A stretch of 64,000 nucleotides of DNA from Escherichia coli (lineage in GTDB: Bacteria; Pseudomonadota; Gammaproteobacteria; Enterobacterales; Enterobacteriaceae), in the NCBI RefSeq assembly GCF_017348835.2, contig NZ_CP071375.1; one strand, written 5' to 3'. Shown piece after piece: positions 45,901 through 51,900 of the stretch; positions within the stretch are counted from its first letter, which is position 1; each line of letters begins with the position of its first letter. The position numbers are program-made.

Positions 45901-48900
45901 TACCATGAACTGCATGTATACTGACTTGTGTTCATGATTATATTAGGGTGGTTAAACTCAATAAAGTCACAAAAATGATTATAATTATGTAATGGTGTAA
46001 AATTAAAATATTTCTTAACTCCTTTCCCCAAACCATCATAATATGGATGAGCATCTACTTTACTATGCATAAAAGAAAGTCCCTCAAGTAGAGCAGGATG
46101 ATTACTACGGTTAACAATTATTGCACTATTTTCAATATTTACACTATCATTACGACGATCCACATGCATTGAAATTCCATCAGGAGCATATATTGTACCA
46201 AGCTTACCTGTAAGTATCATATCCATATCAAGATAGATACACCCCTCCCCGAATGAAATACCGTGATTCTTTGTATTATATGTGCACCTGAATATCTCTC
46301 CTGCTTTTAATAAGGCTAAATTTCTGAAGAAATCAAACCATGCATGATTTCTTTTCTTTGCATACATAGAAATCAAAGAATCCTGCGCCTTTGAAATTTC
46401 CCTCGGCTTTGTTGAATAAATCGAACTTTTGCTGAGTTGAAGGATCAGATCACGTATCTTCCCGACAACGCAGACCGTTCCGTGGCAAAGCAAAAGTTCA
46501 AAATCACCAACTGGCCCACCTACAATAAAGCCCTCATCAACCGTGGCTCCATAACTTTCTGGCTGGATGATGAAGCTATTCAGGCCTGGTATGAGTCAGC
46601 AACACCTTCTTCACGAGGCAGACCTCAGCGCTATTCTGACCTTGCCATCACGACTGTGCTGGTCATTAAACGCGTATTCAGGCTGACCCTGCGCGCTGCG
46701 CAGGGCTTTATTGATTCCATTTTTTCTCTGATGAACGTTCCGCTACGCTGCCCGGATTACAGCTGTGTCAGCAGGCGGGCAAAGTCGGTTAACGTCAGTT
46801 TCAAAACGCCCACCCGGGGTGAAATCGCACACCTGGTAATTGATTCCACCGGGCTGAAGGTCTTCGGTGAAGGCGAGTGGAAAGTCAAAAAGCATGGCCA
46901 GGAACGCCGCCGTATCTGGCGTAAGCTGCATCTCGCCGTTGACAGTAAAACACATGAAATCATCTGCGCTGACCTGTCGCTGAACAATGTGACGGACTCA
47001 GAAGCCTTCCCGGGTCTTATCCGGCAGACTCACAGAAAAATCAGGGCAGCATCGGCAGACGGCGCTTACGACACCCGGCTCTGTCACGATGAACTGCGGC
47101 GTAAGAAAATCAGCGCGCTTATCCCTCCCCGAAAAGGTGCGGGTTACTGGCCCGGTGAATATGCAGACCGTAACCGTGCAGTGGCTAATCAGCGAATGAC
47201 CGGGAGTAATGCGCGGTGGAAATGGACAACAGATTACAACCGTCGCTCGATAGCGGAAACGGCGATGTACCGGGTAAAACAGCTGTTCGGGGGTTCACTG
47301 ACGCTGCGTGACTACGATGGTCAGGTTGCGGAGGCTATGGCCCTGGTACGAGCGCTGAACAAAATGACGAAAGCAGGTATGCCTGAAAGCGTGCGTATTG
47401 CCTGAAAACACAACCCGCTACGGGGGAGACTTACCCGAAATCTGATTTATTCAACAAAGCCATTTCCCTCAGCTCTTTCTCTAACAGATTCAACAAGTAT
47501 TCATCTCTTTTGTCTTCAGTTCGTAACCTTTGTTCACATATAATATCATGATAAATATCTGATAGTTTTCTGTCATACATACTGAAGTCAACATCTTCCC
47601 GATAGATTATCATTACATTTTCAAAATCTCGTTCCAATTTTGAAAAAGCAGTCTTTTGGTTGACTGAAAAATCGCCATCAACAAAAATACCTATCATACG
47701 ATCACTCTCTATCCTTGCCGCATTTGTGACATTATCTAAATAGGGATGCTGCTTAGTATTAACTATTGGAACCTCATCTTTCTTATATCGTTCAGGATTA
47801 GGTTCAAACCACTGAAAAAGAATAGGCGTTTTTTCATCAATGACCTTTAACTCATATTCCTTTCCTGCAAAAGAAACCGTTTGACAGGGTGAACTCTGCA
47901 CTATATTTACTGAGTTATGGAAAGTTGTCCTTATCGGTGAAAGCATTCGTCGTCCTGTTTATCCATATTTTCTTCACAACTAACTCTTTAATCTATTAAT
48001 TATATTGGCATACTCAACCACAAAACCTCCAGCAGTTTTGCCATCTTTGCTTTCCTAACAAACATCACCATGGCATGCCAACAAAAACCGGAGCCGGACT
48101 CCGGTTTTGTGAAGCTGTCGGGTTACTTCATCCCGCCAATATTTTCCCACGTCCCGTCAGCACGCAGAATTTGCAGCGGTCTTACCACGCACTGTATCTG
48201 CTTTTTATCCGCATCCAGTATCACCACCTGTGTGATTACCCTGTCCTGCTCCGGAATAATGCCATTCTCATCTGACTCCAGAATGTCTGCCGGTCCCAGT
48301 CGCAGTTGTGCTGTAAGCGACTGCACGTGTTCACGGCCATCATGCTTTCCGCAACCACACAGACGCTGCATAAGTTTTTTTAGTATATTCATGTCATTCT
48401 CCTGTTCTGCCTGTATCACTGCCCACTTCATTCAGCCCCTTAACATCCTGCCACGGCCCGTCACCAAACCTGACCTGCAAATGCTGAAACAGCCCCTGAA
48501 CCTGTGTGGCATCTTTGGGGTCAAGAAAGGTCAGTCCGGTGATGAGTGCGCCATCTGTATCCGGGAACCAGCCATTGCTGTTTGTCTCAATAATGCTCGC
48601 CGGCCCCAGACGAAAACGGATTTGTGTCTCCCCCGGGTCGCCCTTCGGTCCCTGAGGTCCGGTTGCCCCCACCGGGCCAGCCGCACCTGTTTCTCCTTTC
48701 GGTCCCTGTGGGCCTGCCGGGCCTGCCGCACCGGTATCTCCCTTTGGACCCTGTGGACCTGCATTTCCCGTCAGACCGGTCTCTCCCCGCTCTCCCCTGT
48801 CGCCTTTCGGCCCCTGCGGGCCTGCCGGACCAGCATCACCTGCCGGCCCCCGTTCACCGGTTGCCCCTGCCGGGCCGGTGTCGCCACGCTCTCCCTTATC

Positions 48901-51900
48901 CCCCTTCGGCCCCTGAGGGCCAGCGGGCCCCTGTTCCCCCTTTGGCCCGGGAGGTCCCACCACGGTGGGGATTCGGTTTACGGCCTCTTCCGCCGCTATC
49001 CTGCTTTGTTCCGCTGACTGTGCGCTTTCTGCTGACTCCCGGGCTTTTTCTGTTGCGGTCGTTGCATCCCTGGCTGCATTACCGGCTGCACTTTCTGCCG
49101 TCTTTCTTGACAATTCAGCTTCTGCTGCACTTTGTGATGACTCACTGGCTTTTTGAGCGGCCGCAGAAGCCGAGGACGAGGACGCATCCTCTGACTGCTT
49201 TGCTGAGGCTGCACTTTCTGCCGCCTGCCGGGCTGACTCCGATGCCTCCCCTGCTGAAGTGTCAGCATTTGCAGCGCTCTCTTCTGCCTGACTGGCTGAT
49301 ATGCCGGCATTCCTCGCTGACGTCTCCGCCTCTCCGGCATTCTTCTTCGCCTCCTCAGCGTGACGCGCCACCTCTTCCACCATCAGTTCAAAACGGCGCA
49401 GAGCCTCCGGACGGGCATCATCCTCCGTCATGGCACCGAGAAAATCATTCAGCGTACCGGGTTGAGAATCTTCATACACGGTGATGGTCCCGGCATGTGA
49501 CGGCGGGAATCCTTCCACCAACAGAATGACGCTGTACTGACCGTACTCAACGTCCATGCTGTAACGCCCGGCTTCATCCGGATTTTCAGAGGCCACCGTG
49601 TTCACCACCACCGTGCTGCTGGTCCGTCTGGCTTTCAGTTGAATGGTACAGTTCTCTACCGGTTTTCCTGTGCCGTCTTTCAGTACACCTGAAATCTTTA
49701 CTGCCATATTCACCCCACAAAAAAGCCCGCCTGAACCGGCGGGCTGTCATAACACTGTGTTACCTGGCTAATCAGAATTTATAGCCGATACCCACGATGA
49801 AGCCGTCAGTGCGCCAGTCGCCACTGGCGGAACCTTCATAAGCAAGGTCAATAACCACCGTCTCTACGGGACTGAACTGAATCCCGGCATTCCAGGCCGG
49901 CGACAGATGACGCGCAGTATGACCATCACTGGCGGTGGTGGTCTCCTTCACATACCCCGGTTTCACTTCATCACGCCGGTAATCCTGAACACTGTCAGAC
50001 CAGCGGGTGTACGCCATCCCGGCCATGCCATAGAGACTGACCCGCTCACTGAACTGCCAGACAGGGCCGGCCATCAGACTGACATAACGACCGCGCAGGC
50101 TTTCATAATGGAAGGTATTTTCACCCGTCTTCATCGTGTCACTTTTCTTCACCGATGCATAACTCAGCGCGACAATGCCGCCCAGGTGATCCGTGAACTC
50201 ATAACGGTATTTCACGTTAATCCCTTTTAAATCACCTGCACGCGCACCGGTACCGGACAATGCCGGTACGCCGCCCGGGTGAACCTGAGCATATCCCACG
50301 GAAAATGCACCGTGTCCGCTTTCAGCCTGTGCAGGAAAGGCAATTCCTGCCAGCAGGGTAGTAAACAATAATATCGTTGCGTATAAATGCCGCATGATTA
50401 CCTCTTTGTTTTCAGTCAATAAAAAAGGCACCTCCTGAGGTGCCCGTCCGGGTTAATAAACCGTCAGCTGATACTGATCCCTGCAGTGGATTTTTTCATG
50501 ACCACAACCAGTAAATCACTGATGTACGTTGTCGGCGTCCAGTTGTTCGCACCGGCCGACGACACATTAAACGTCAGGGTGACATGACCCCGCCCTGCCG
50601 GCATATCTATCACCGATGAGAACACCCGGCTGACATCCGTTGCCGGTTCATGGAAAATCTCAACCCCGTTCTTCAGCACCTGCAGCTTACAGGTGGAATA
50701 CCAGTACGACTGCTGATTCGGGCTGTTGAAATTCTGGTGTTTCGTCCCGCGAAACAGCACCGGGGGAATGATAATCTGCCGGTCGAAGCCCTGGTCATCG
50801 TAAACTGTGACGGTTACCGTCCCGCTGGCATAACTGTTATTCCGGGGAAAGGCTTTCCCCACCGTCTTCACCAGGTCGCCTTCTATCTGGTTTGCAGACA
50901 GTTTCCCTCTGATGACACAGTTCTCGTTAATGGTGACATTATTGAGCGTGCCGGTATTCGCGGTAATTGCTCCACTGATATCCGCGTTCCTGGCTGTCAG
51001 CTTCCCTTCCGGCGTCAGGGAAAATGCCGGGGGATTGCCGGACGAGGTGATACTCACCGCAAACAGTCGCTTCAGGAACACATCGTTCATGAACAACTGA
51101 TTCCCCTGCGCCACAAATAACGGCGTGCTGTTGCCGCTCTCCGGATTTATCATCGCAATACGGTCAGCCAGCAGCAGTATGTTGCTCAGTGGCTGGCCAT
51201 CAGTATCCTCAATCCCTGCACCAATCCCGGCCACATAGGGAATGCCGTCTTTCGTTTTTTGAACCTTCAGCATGTACAGCGCAGCCAGGTCATCATTTGT
51301 GTCCTTCTGCACGCGCTGTATCTGCTGTATGGTGGCGCTCTGGTTCTCCAGTGTTTTACTGACCGTCTGTGTGATTTCATTGCGGGTTTCCGTGATGCTG
51401 GTCTTCATCTCCGCCATCTCATCTGCAAGCTGGCTGTTATCTATCAGTTCCCACAACCCCTGAGCCAGATGCAGTTTTCCTATTTTTTCCCGGAAAAATT
51501 CCAGATACCCTTCACCATCATTGCTGGGCTGCCCGCTGACTTCCACAAACGCAGATTTCCCCACCAGGTTGACGCTGCGCACGTAAAACCAGAAATCCTT
51601 CCCAGGCTTAATGTGCGGGCCGGATACACTCCACTGACTGCCGGTCCCCAGATAACGGGCAGAGGTTTCCACCTGAGATATGTCTGCGATTTTTGTCTCC
51701 GAAAACCAGAACTCAAACTGTACCGTCGGGTCATACACCGCAAGACGCGGGACCGCCGTTATCTGAAAATAGCCCGGTGTCAGTTCAATGGTGGCGGGTT
51801 TTGCTGGCGCGTTAATCCGGAAGGTGGTGGTGGCCGGTTCGCCCTGCTGGCCATAACTGTTAATTGCCCTGACCGTCAGGGTGTATTCCCCCGGCGGCAG

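Follow-up and report, generated by a model that had tools for sequence, protein, structure and literature searches.

The window, the 64,000-nt stretch of DNA that was analysed (from contig NZ_CP071375.1), includes a lambdoid prophage of E. coli and the distal end of its late operon. This end runs from J and lom through a side tail fibre gene and a small gene to a terminator, followed by type III effector morons. The fibre and small ORFs are both on the minus strand and are present in the ORF list of the window. The features of the locus are:

49724..49745, minus strand: hairpin resembling a terminator, lying between lom and the fibre gene (hairpin scan; annotated likewise in phage 434)
48394..49707, minus strand: EPclA-type gene for the side tail fibre, 437 aa and a stop codon (PGAP and phage 434 ATG; PF08400, PF01391 and PF06820)
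49303..49701, minus strand: PfN, the prophage tail fibre N-terminal domain for tail attachment (PF08400, E=2e-69)
48955..49302, minus strand: PCoil, Ala/Ser/Glu-rich, predicted trimeric coiled coil (36 Ala, 24 Ser and 16 Glu among 115 residues)
48625..48957, minus strand: collagen-like domain of 37 Gly-X-Y triplets without interruption, residues 251-361 (regex count; PF01391, E=3e-18)
48430..48621, minus strand: fibre PfC tip, the 'alpha' copy, residues 363-426 (PF06820, E=1.1e-35)
48397..48429, minus strand: fibre C-terminal tail of 11 residues, read from the sequence, its last codons holding the ribosome-binding site (RBS) of the next gene; the junction is conserved
48399..48403, minus strand: AGGAG RBS serving the small gene, 6 nt before the ATG and within the last codons of the fibre
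48123..48392, minus strand: small gene, the 'beta' copy, 89 aa plus stop, encoding the stand-alone PfC protein WP_001023455.1 (PGAP and phage 434 annotations)
48312..48392, minus strand: small-protein N-terminal extension, residues 1-27, with a short basic helix, a CGCGKH motif and a disordered linker
48375..48381, minus strand: A7 homopolymer at codons 4-6 of the small gene, a recurrent frameshift-allele site
48126..48311, minus strand: small-protein PfC domain, residues 28-89 (39% identity to the fibre tip; PF06820)
48080..48107, minus strand: intrinsic terminator closing the fibre/small-gene unit, a 10-bp GC-rich hairpin and then a U run
45422..45532, minus strand: lambda-type tfa relic of 36 codons (called a pseudogene by PGAP in PE164, whose locus is 100% identical, and mapped to the window)

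The terminator at 48080..48107 folds with a dG of -13.9 kcal/mol (z -2.2), and phage 434 has a terminator annotated at the equivalent place. A simple terminator scan of the locus did not list this hairpin.

The sequence-only reading described a 439-aa tail fibre with about 35 Gly-X-Y triplets preceded by an Ala/Ser/Glu-rich region. The ORF of that length exists from a GTG at 49713 (48394-49713), while PGAP and the phage 434 record use the ATG at 49707 and so have 437 aa. The triplet run is real and slightly longer than first counted, and the Ala/Ser/Glu-rich region precedes it. The collagen-coding DNA contains internal direct repeats, D1-D3. Fibre residues 1-94 match a PDB 'Tail fiber protein' chain (9e7m_Ta, 9e-52), and the PF06820 match scores 122.2 bits against a gathering score of 25 bits, covering profile positions 1-64 at residues 365-428 in the 439-aa, GTG-start numbering. 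PF08400, PF01391 and PF06820 occur in this order, with the 37 triplets and an Ala/Ser/Glu region of 115-116 residues. This is the PfN-PCoil-Col-PfC architecture of EPclA, with the same lengths (437 aa, PCoil 116, Col 111; Ghosh et al. 2012, Table 2, PMC3368898).

PCoil was defined and shown to trimerise in the same study, which also found that the EPclA orthologue is a trimer with a collagen Tm of 42 °C and that PfC is a trimerisation domain renucleating the collagen helix. Produced in BL21(DE3)/JM109(DE3), both recombinant EPclA and isolated PfC form trimers and refold with no need of the small protein (PMC3368898). This biochemistry applies to the fibre of the window, an EPclA-type trimer attached to the tail by PfN, with the coiled coil and the 37-triplet collagen helix as its shaft. 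The 64-residue all-beta PfC makes up the distal knob, where it trimerises and starts the folding of the collagen from its C-terminal end. The downstream small gene goes unmentioned by Ghosh et al., in whose paper neither 'downstream' nor 'chaperone' occurs (PMC3368898).

An overlapping 102-aa ORF downstream of the fibre had also been proposed. The ORF exists, but its 38-nt overlap with the fibre is an artefact of taking the longest ORF, and the PGAP and phage 434 annotators place the real start at the ATG at 48392, 1 nt past the fibre stop, giving an 89-aa product. The junction reads ...ACAGGAGAATGAC ATG AAT..., with AGGAG, the fibre stop TGA (48396-48394), one base and the ATG in that order. 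Of 84 loci examined, 78 share exactly this string, and an RBS is marked at the corresponding site in the phage 434 record. The small gene is translated separately from its own RBS, by coupling to the fibre stop.

The resemblance noted between the small ORF and the fibre tip holds up in pairwise BLASTP (24/62 identities, 39%; 63% positives; E=2e-12). The small ORF matches PF06820 over its full length (7.1e-36, 122.8 bits, profile positions 1-64) at residues 41-102 of the 102-aa frame. PF06820 is its sole Pfam family, PF02413 (Caudo_TAP) being unmatched at E<=1, and NCBIfam gave no match. In PHROGs it belongs to phrog_576, 'tail fiber protein' (E=6e-60), with 576 and 13758 the only families matched. 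It is homologous to the tip and to no assembly family, the opposite of the outcome that would have refuted the sequence-only reading. PF06820 domains are expected to end a tail fibre polypeptide, as in the fibre itself, whereas the small protein has no shaft and consists of just this domain and a 27-residue N-terminal extension. Its PGAP name, 'C-terminal domain-containing protein', results from this free-standing PfC. A search for a DNA-level repeat between the two PfC-coding segments found none; the likeness is an old protein-level duplication. The small protein is thus an ancient paralogue of the fibre knob carrying an N-terminal extension.

An AF2 model of the small protein places a helix at residues 3-11, with pLDDT<50 at 13-23, and predicts an all-beta PfC at a pLDDT of about 90, in agreement with CD data for the fibre PfC. 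A single-chain pseudo-trimer model has low confidence (pLDDT 47), and modelling therefore gives no support for trimerisation of the small protein. Within the extension, C12, C14 and H17 belong to the set of positions at which at least 95% of 110 copies carry the majority residue, and the divergent homologue P0130 retains the basic start and a Cys pair.

The small gene was further proposed to be a vestige, which the pattern of variation contradicts. In junction-selected loci its pN/pS is 0.175 overall, 0.35 in the N-terminal part and 0.076 in the PfC part, compared with 0.28 for the fibre PfC (Fisher's test, p=0.024) and a PfN baseline of 0.12. The PfC part has 13 codon columns with amino-acid changes and 22 with synonymous variants (binomial p=2e-6). 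Between distant modules the small-gene copies retain 65% identity and the fibre tips 34%. The small gene evolves about half as fast as the fibre tip and is a functional gene under strong purifying selection. Its start, with a conserved RBS, lies downstream in all 63 new loci picked solely by a fibre-tip DNA word, 57 of which carry it intact. It is also intact in 110 of 119 loci of an independently selected set, and in 125 of 134 distinct contexts despite 27 frame-broken adjacent fibres.

The same tip and small gene occur on EPclA shafts (siphovirus) and on EPclB shafts (Stx2 podovirus). In L201 the pair follows a 212-aa non-collagen fibre with the same layout, namely an RBS in the fibre end, an overlapping start and a terminator. 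The two are therefore obligately linked and co-inherited as a two-gene module that has been exchanged among three different shafts. About 6,400 copies of the small gene are found in complete E. coli genomes, where it is confined to those of STEC/EPEC type, which carry a median of 10 copies each.

Comparison with related prophages recovers the same pair in phage 434 (gp23/gp24, OL657226), Sp5/933W (ORF67/ORF68, ECs1228 and its neighbour), phi24B (gp61/gp59) and VT1-Sakai (H0004/H0003). These share the gene order, are 95-97% identical to the window in DNA and encode an 89-aa small product with PF06820. They show no essential difference from it, although Sp5 and phi24B stand apart in carrying the longer EPclB-type shaft on a podovirus. 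The pair is thus already known and is not itself novel. The phage 434 record names the small gene 'tail fiber assembly chaperone' by position. In Sp5, deletion of the fibre abolishes infectivity, whereas an in-frame deletion of ORF68 in a K-12 background leaves the phage infectious (Mondal et al. 2016, PMC5155283). Any assembly role is therefore non-essential under laboratory conditions. Two peptides unique to gp59, ADGTWENIGGMK and VITQVVILDADKK, were detected in the proteome of purified phi24B virions, so the small gene is translated. They gave about 3 spectra per peptide versus 2,267 for the fibre, which is within the contaminant range, and these low counts argue against a stoichiometric structural cap. 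The small protein is at most a trace component of the phi24B virion.

Cassette exchange is nonetheless evident at the fibre locus. A lambda-like PfN carries a distal module of another kind, and farther downstream sits a Caudo_TAP relic (PF02413, E=4.7e-12 in Pfam), stranded within the effector locus ~2.6 kb beyond the small gene. The genuine cassette relic is this tfa fragment (45422-45532), not the small gene. Of the earlier suggestion of an exchanged receptor-binding cassette, the exchange therefore stands, but the small ORF is a poor candidate for a spare cassette. Mondal et al. noted the 89-aa PfC-only ORF and suggested a reservoir role for Sp5 ORF68 (PMC5155283), by which recombination could graft the small ORF onto the fibre tip as an alternative receptor-binding cassette. 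The small ORF does adjoin the tip and is homologous to it, and rare natural chimeras exist, with collagen joined straight to the small-ORF PfC (P0063) or the small-ORF N-terminus joined to the fibre PfC end (P0133). Frameshifts also fuse the fibre to the small ORF (L012/L088, L006/L199, L138). However, the chimeras are singletons among thousands of copies, and the two segments share no DNA-level repeat to drive homologous exchange. They lie in direct orientation, such that grafting would delete sequence with no way back. Machinery able to deploy the small ORF by inversion, a retroelement or frameshifting was not found at the locus in the window or among the phage 434 and PGAP neighbours. Nor were the hallmarks of programmed tip-switching (an invertase with inverted repeats, or a reverse transcriptase accompanied by a pair of template and variable repeats), the neighbours being only lom, J and effectors. 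A silent cassette would not need the RBS, start codon and conserved N-terminal extension that the small ORF keeps, and a receptor-binding reserve should either decay or change no more slowly than the active tip, whereas the small ORF changes more slowly. A reservoir role is consequently improbable. Equally unlikely is that an ancestral tandem PfC was cut by a stop and restart, leaving the small protein as a non-covalent, stoichiometric outermost knob that contacts the receptor. Tandem PfC-like modules do occur in other phage fibres, with four copies beside collagen repeats in P0151 and six or more in P0166. The 1-nt gap between stop and start, the fusion alleles created by single-base frameshifts and the presence of gp59 peptides in phi24B virions are also consistent with a split. 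The very low spectral counts relative to the fibre are not, and neither is the contrast between the two Sp5 deletions (PMC5155283). An outermost receptor-binding knob would also be expected to be the faster-evolving copy, whereas the small protein is the slower.

A role outside the fibre has less in its favour again, and we consider it quite unlikely. The small protein could be a soluble tip-like decoy that lysis sets free and that masks receptors on debris, or else a moron expressed in the lysogen and acting in superinfection or on the host. The position of the gene at the moron/effector boundary directly before the terminator, the dispensability of its orthologue for plaque formation (PMC5155283) and its restriction to STEC/EPEC-type genomes in many copies would fit such a role. 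Against it, a search between J and the terminator found no promoter-like site, the gene is translationally coupled to the fibre gene, and it always accompanies the fibre tip rather than the effectors. The protein lacks a signal peptide or normal-form lipobox, and PADLOC defence-system models returned 0 families at E<=1. Least probable is that the gene is a decaying non-functional duplicate, or serves as a C-terminal extension of the fibre through frameshift or readthrough fusion. About 7-10% of copies are truncated, mostly at the A7 run, where the same 51-aa frameshift product (MNILKN...) recurs in 6/119 and 2/63 loci. In 160 of 203 loci no stop interrupts the 46 codons that precede the ATG in the +1 frame, and fusion models were present in the search database of the phi24B authors. 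However, disruptions per codon are about as frequent in the small gene as in the fibre, and with a small-gene pN/pS of 0.08-0.18 the selection data already largely refute this reading. The TGA immediately upstream of the 102-aa ORF in the window means that the extended frame is not conserved. The small gene lies in the +1 frame with no slippery or stimulatory signal evident here or in Mondal et al. (PMC5155283), and no junction peptide was reported for phi24B.

We tentatively favour a role at the fibre tip itself. The small gene fills the slot held by tfa in lambda, following the fibre after a 1-nt gap and being co-exchanged with the distal part on three shafts, and its product could stand in as a 'tip mimic' for the conventional Tfa chaperone at the PfC knob. 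It may well act on or at this knob in place of Tfa, in a non-essential capacity as a helper in assembly or a detachable cap, rather than as a spare receptor-binding cassette, although we put this at slightly below an even chance. Both the identity of the fibre tip as partner and the kind of interaction are what we infer here. Counting against a helper or cap is the lack of similarity to any chaperone family in Pfam and NCBIfam. In addition, rEPclA trimerises alone (PMC3368898) and Sp5 ORF68 is dispensable in K-12 (PMC5155283), both of which argue that fibre folding and trimerisation do not strictly depend on the small protein.

A precedent exists in Alteromonas phage A5, where dispensable downstream fibre chaperones were proposed as transient caps (PMC10579305). 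As in A5/V22, a downstream accessory gene accompanies the fibre across unrelated morphotypes, and as in A5 the fibre is functional without the chaperone and a knob-domain duplication is involved (PMC10579305). However, the A5/V22 chaperones resemble intramolecular chaperone domains rather than the knob, and the duplication lies inside the fibre polypeptide (PMC10579305). No sequence relationship to them is expected. The small protein differs from the Caudo_TAP (PF02413) partners in the lambda Stf-Tfa, Mu S-U and P2 H-G modules in being a tip paralogue without Caudo_TAP homology, and here the small-gene orthologue is dispensable and the fibre self-trimerising. Another separately encoded small protein downstream of a fibre gene is the gp38-type adhesin of T2, T6 and S16, which can sit at the gp37 tip. 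These adhesins set host range and evolve fast, unlike the small protein, which is a slow-evolving partner present in at most trace amounts in virions.

It is possible, if rather doubtful, that the 89-aa protein represents a new kind of fibre accessory factor, a free paralogue of the trimeric tip that templates, protects or transiently caps the PfC knob. If so, it would be a chaperone or cap descended from its own client and not from any chaperone family.

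The collagen-like side tail fibre gene of a lambdoid prophage in the E. coli chromosome is followed by a small gene encoding a stand-alone copy of the fibre's C-terminal domain (Phage_fiber_C, PF06820; PfC). Read along the minus strand, the region runs J (50464–53940), lom, fibre gene, small gene, terminator, and a type III effector locus holding nleB2 (IS-split here), truncated nleC, nleH, and nleF. Positions 47900–49800 of the window are 100% identical to strain PE164, 99.7% to an O103:H2 strain, 96–97% to many Stx1 and Stx2 phages, and 95.5% to classical phage 434.

Features of the fibre locus
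48394–49713 (−): fibre ORF in its longest form, GTG start
48394–49707 (−): fibre gene as annotated by PGAP and the curated 434 record, start ATG 49707, 437 aa
48123–48392 (−): small gene, 89-aa product called by both PGAP and the 434 record
after the small-gene stop (−): 10-bp hairpin and U-run, dG −13.9 kcal/mol, annotated as a terminator in phage 434
45422–45532 (−): tfa relic, 36 codons, matching the end of the Caudo_TAP family (4.7e-12)

With the gene starts corrected, Pfam, BLASTP, and annotation bear out the sequence-only reading in its observation of a collagen fibre followed by a tip-like ORF. The fibre contains, in order, PF08400 (PfN, 2e-69), PF01391 (collagen, 3e-18), and PF06820 (PfC, 1.1e-35). 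Residues 251–361 form 37 unbroken Gly-X-Y triplets, where about 35 had been claimed, and are preceded by a 115-residue stretch dominated by Ala, Ser, and Glu. The small ORF is a full-length Pfam match to PF06820 (7e-36), and its proposed C-terminal likeness to the fibre tip is beyond chance on pairwise BLASTP alignment (24/62 identities, E=2e-12). The length of 102 aa and the 38-nt overlap with the fibre were longest-ORF artefacts, the true start being ATG 48392. At the junction, AGGAG-AATGAC-ATG, one base separates the fibre TGA from this ATG, and the strong ribosome-binding site of the small gene sits within the last codons of the fibre. Programmed frameshifting was rejected. The small gene lies in the +1 frame; upstream of its ATG that frame stays open for 46 codons and overlaps the fibre tip in just 160 of 203 related loci, and in the window (48397–48434) a TGA shuts it after 13 codons. 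A lipoprotein reading of MNILKKLMQRLCGC was also discarded, as just 11 residues precede the Cys and Gln/Arg break any hydrophobic core.

The surrounding region has features of its own. Terminator-like hairpins flank lom at 49724–49745 and 50426–50445 (−) and are also present in the 434 record; their presence within a nominally single late operon presumably follows the arrangement known from lambda, where Q antitermination allows read-through. The Cu/Zn superoxide dismutase gene sodC, a typical cargo gene of prophages, is encoded on the other strand at 54074–54601 (+), with J on one side and the tail assembly genes on the other. The nleB2 gene (45900–47946) is interrupted by an insertion sequence with a DDE transposase ORF at 46437–47405 (+), its halves matching positions 1–154 and 151–317 of the SseK_NleB profile. 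It is unbroken in PE164, the strain with the identical fibre region.

The fibre is EPclA of Ghosh et al. 2012 (PMC3368898), with architecture and lengths matching the publication exactly. Recombinant EPclA, expressed in BL21(DE3) and JM109(DE3), is a dumbbell-shaped trimer of 55–62 nm whose collagen domain melts at 42 °C (Ghosh et al. 2012, PMC3368898). PfC is trimeric by itself, and Col-PfC refolds immediately once heat-denatured, which makes PfC the nucleator of the triple helix; the downstream small gene is not discussed in that paper (Ghosh et al. 2012, PMC3368898). Mondal et al. 2016 (PMC5155283) made in-frame deletions of nearly every unknown-function gene of Stx2 phage Sp5 in a K-12 MG1655 background, found fibre ORF67 essential and the small-gene orthologue ORF68 non-essential, and proposed a reservoir function for the latter. 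Given this report, both the observation and the interpretation of the first reading are therefore already in print. The fibre/small-gene feature is already known and very common.

Whether the small gene is maintained was assessed in loci fetched from IMG/VR by three routes. Loci picked by likeness to the small protein all shared 96% identity or more with the query; the first selection estimate, being biased by this choice, was redone with 119 loci picked solely by a 19-nt junction word. Of these, 110 carry the small gene intact (89 aa), 6 have it frameshifted at the A7 run, 2 have it otherwise truncated, and in 1 it runs off the contig end. Nei–Gojobori averages over its 71 distinct nucleotide alleles from the junction-word loci were pS 0.14 and pN 0.0245.

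pN/pS ratios in the small gene and the fibre
Small gene as a whole: 0.175
Small gene, PfC part (residues 28–89): 0.076
Small gene, N-terminal extension (residues 1–27): 0.35
Fibre PfC, from the junction-word loci: 0.28
Fibre PfN domain, from the first, protein-similarity-chosen loci: 0.12

In the small-gene PfC, 13 codon columns carry amino-acid changes and 22 synonymous variants (binomial p=2e-6 against a 3:1 neutral expectation), compared with 28 and 16 in the fibre PfC (Fisher's test p=0.024). The third route, using solely a 26-nt word in the fibre tip, added 67 new loci; the small-gene start was present in all 63 with enough downstream sequence, and the gene was intact in 57. Counted over 134 distinct contexts, 125 have an unbroken small gene, with 27 EPclA-type fibres frame-broken, and the disruption rate per codon is about the same for both genes. 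The small gene is thus a separately initiated, translationally coupled, and selected gene, always linked to a PfC tip. Linkage of tip and small-gene alleles was dropped as a test of co-evolution because the two genes, within 300 bp, would be linked anyway.

In the N-terminal extension of the small protein, C12, C14, and H17 are each conserved in 95% or more of the 110 copies, with H22 variable. Codons 4–6 include an A7 homopolymer at 48375–48381 (−), where a single frameshifted allele, 51 aa long, turns up repeatedly, in 8 of ~180 independently selected loci; sequencing error, recurrent mutation, or on/off variation may be the cause.

Peptide evidence comes from the phi24B virion proteome, part of a 2026 preprint. 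Its supplementary table lists ADGTWENIGGMK and VITQVVILDADKK, which are unique to gp59, the phi24B small protein, and identical to the window's. Each gp59 peptide has ~3 spectra, against 2,267 for fibre gp61. The small protein is therefore made in lytic growth and is present at most in traces in purified virions. The preprint authors also put hypothetical fibre–gp59 fusions in their search database, with the entry label 'Spike or just gp59?'.

The small gene holds the position of lambda tfa, which led the 434 annotators to name it a chaperone. No Tfa homology was found in the small protein with Pfam, NCBIfam, or PHROGs. An essential chaperone is argued against by the Sp5 non-essentiality, the self-trimerisation of EPclA, and the trace virion abundance, all of which leave room for a conditional helper. 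The preferred reading, held tentatively at a little below an even chance, is that the small protein acts as a tip mimic: its partner would be the fibre PfC knob, and it may aid assembly or transiently cap the tip. A precedent is Alteromonas phage A5 (PMC10579305), in which the fibre is functional without its downstream chaperone and the chaperone is proposed to be a transient cap.

The same three observations count against a split distal knob, in which the small protein would form a stoichiometric outer part of the tip, and this is considered unlikely. The selection and intactness pattern is not that of a decaying relic or a silent cassette; a pseudogene or a frameshift fusion with the fibre is rated highly improbable. 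A reservoir cassette, holding a reserve of alternative receptor specificity, is rated unlikely, on a par with the split knob, as the small copy evolves more slowly than the tip, an asymmetry ill-suited to such a reserve. A decoy or moron role for the small protein is rated as quite doubtful. The earlier interpretation is thus partly supported: the small ORF is homologous to the tip rather than a Tfa, but the suggestion of a vestige fails, given the selection and linkage data.

The tip and small gene also occur together outside EPclA. Of 1.84 billion representative proteins searched by profile, just 91 matched, almost all of them fragments from Escherichia, which ruled out a deep alignment; in another protein search the names included E. 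albertii and Citrobacter rodentium. A divergent small protein of 79 aa (P0130) in GCA_008387015.1 (pair at 110–974 of locus L201) adjoins NleG- and SopA-like effector genes and follows a non-collagen protein of 212 aa that ends in a PF06820 tip and has a weak CBM5/12-like stretch. Its layout is that of the window, with AGGAGG in the fibre's end, a start overlapping the fibre stop, and a hairpin terminator. As the EPclB shaft carries the pair in five podovirus-type loci, the pair is found on three unrelated shafts. Between the window and the L201 module, PfC identity is 65% for the small proteins and 34% for the fibre tips, compared with 30–39% for tip versus small protein within a module; the duplication is therefore older than the split of the modules. 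No nucleotide-level repeat is shared by the two PfC-coding segments, which also indicates an old duplication. On these identities the small copy changes about half as fast as the tip, which fits a receptor-binding tip that evolves quickly alongside a partner whose job is conserved.

Natural rearrangements between fibre and small ORF are rare and may be either functional or assembly artefacts. Single-base frameshifts in the fibre PfC fuse the two in loci L012/L088, L006/L199, and L138. In protein P0063 the collagen region is joined straight to the small ORF's PfC, and P0133 is the reciprocal, with the small ORF N-terminus joined to the fibre's PfC end.

The AlphaFold2 monomer of the small protein (17-row alignment) is confident over the PfC part (pLDDT ~90, residues 30–80), with six predicted β-strands, a weakly predicted helix at 3–11, and disorder at 13–23. 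Against predicted viral structures, the Foldseek E-values were weak (3e-3 to 0.1); the probability-1.0 matches were mostly annotated tail fibre proteins from phages of Klebsiella, Erwinia, Rhizobium, and Pantoea, and several others carried no name. The C-terminal half of PfC (...VVVLDAD...LQVRRADGTW..I..LKG) is repeated in tandem, 4 to 7 times, in large fibre-like proteins from metagenomes, P0151 (L269 3505–5202), where it lies beside collagen repeats, and P0166; the metagenome contig of P0151 was uninformative as genomic context. PF06820 therefore belongs to a wider repeat family than its name implies and, together with the Foldseek matches, this indicates that PfC is a generic tail-fibre β module. 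Searching PDB chains with PfC, by sequence and by profile, gave chance hits alone, such as optineurin and ubiquitin, leaving the family without a solved structure. A single-chain pseudo-trimer (three copies, GS linkers, 13-row alignment) folded in one of five models with a mean pLDDT of 47 and is unusable for oligomer inference; Foldseek of this low-confidence model against the PDB gave no match at E<=0.001.

The fragment at 45422–45532 lies ~2.6 kb downstream of the small gene, stranded between the nleC fragment and nleH. It is the C-terminal remnant of a conventional lambda-type tfa. The ancestral stf–tfa distal module was probably displaced by the collagen–PfC/small-gene module and effector cargo. 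The intuition of an exchanged cassette therefore fits the locus, having been pinned on the wrong ORF.

The module is very common in dangerous E. coli. It is present in 697 of 5,426 complete E. coli genomes (13%), with ~6,400 copies overall. Carriers have a median of 10 copies and up to 15 per genome, and 15 copies are plasmid-borne. It is found in Stx1 phages, Stx2 phages, and classical phage 434, and carrier strains among the matches listed include O157, O55:H7, O103, O111, and O84. Annotations usually call the small gene 'tail fiber protein', 'hypothetical', or 'assembly chaperone' on no evidence; recognising it as a tip paralogue that is under selection and translated separately puts a testable question in place of this vagueness. 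Phage 434, which has the same pair and plates on K-12, is an easy experimental system. The results speak against citing the small gene as an example of a silent host-range reservoir. What the collagen-shafted fibre targets and how it is constructed bear on the spread of Shiga-toxin and effector-carrying phages.
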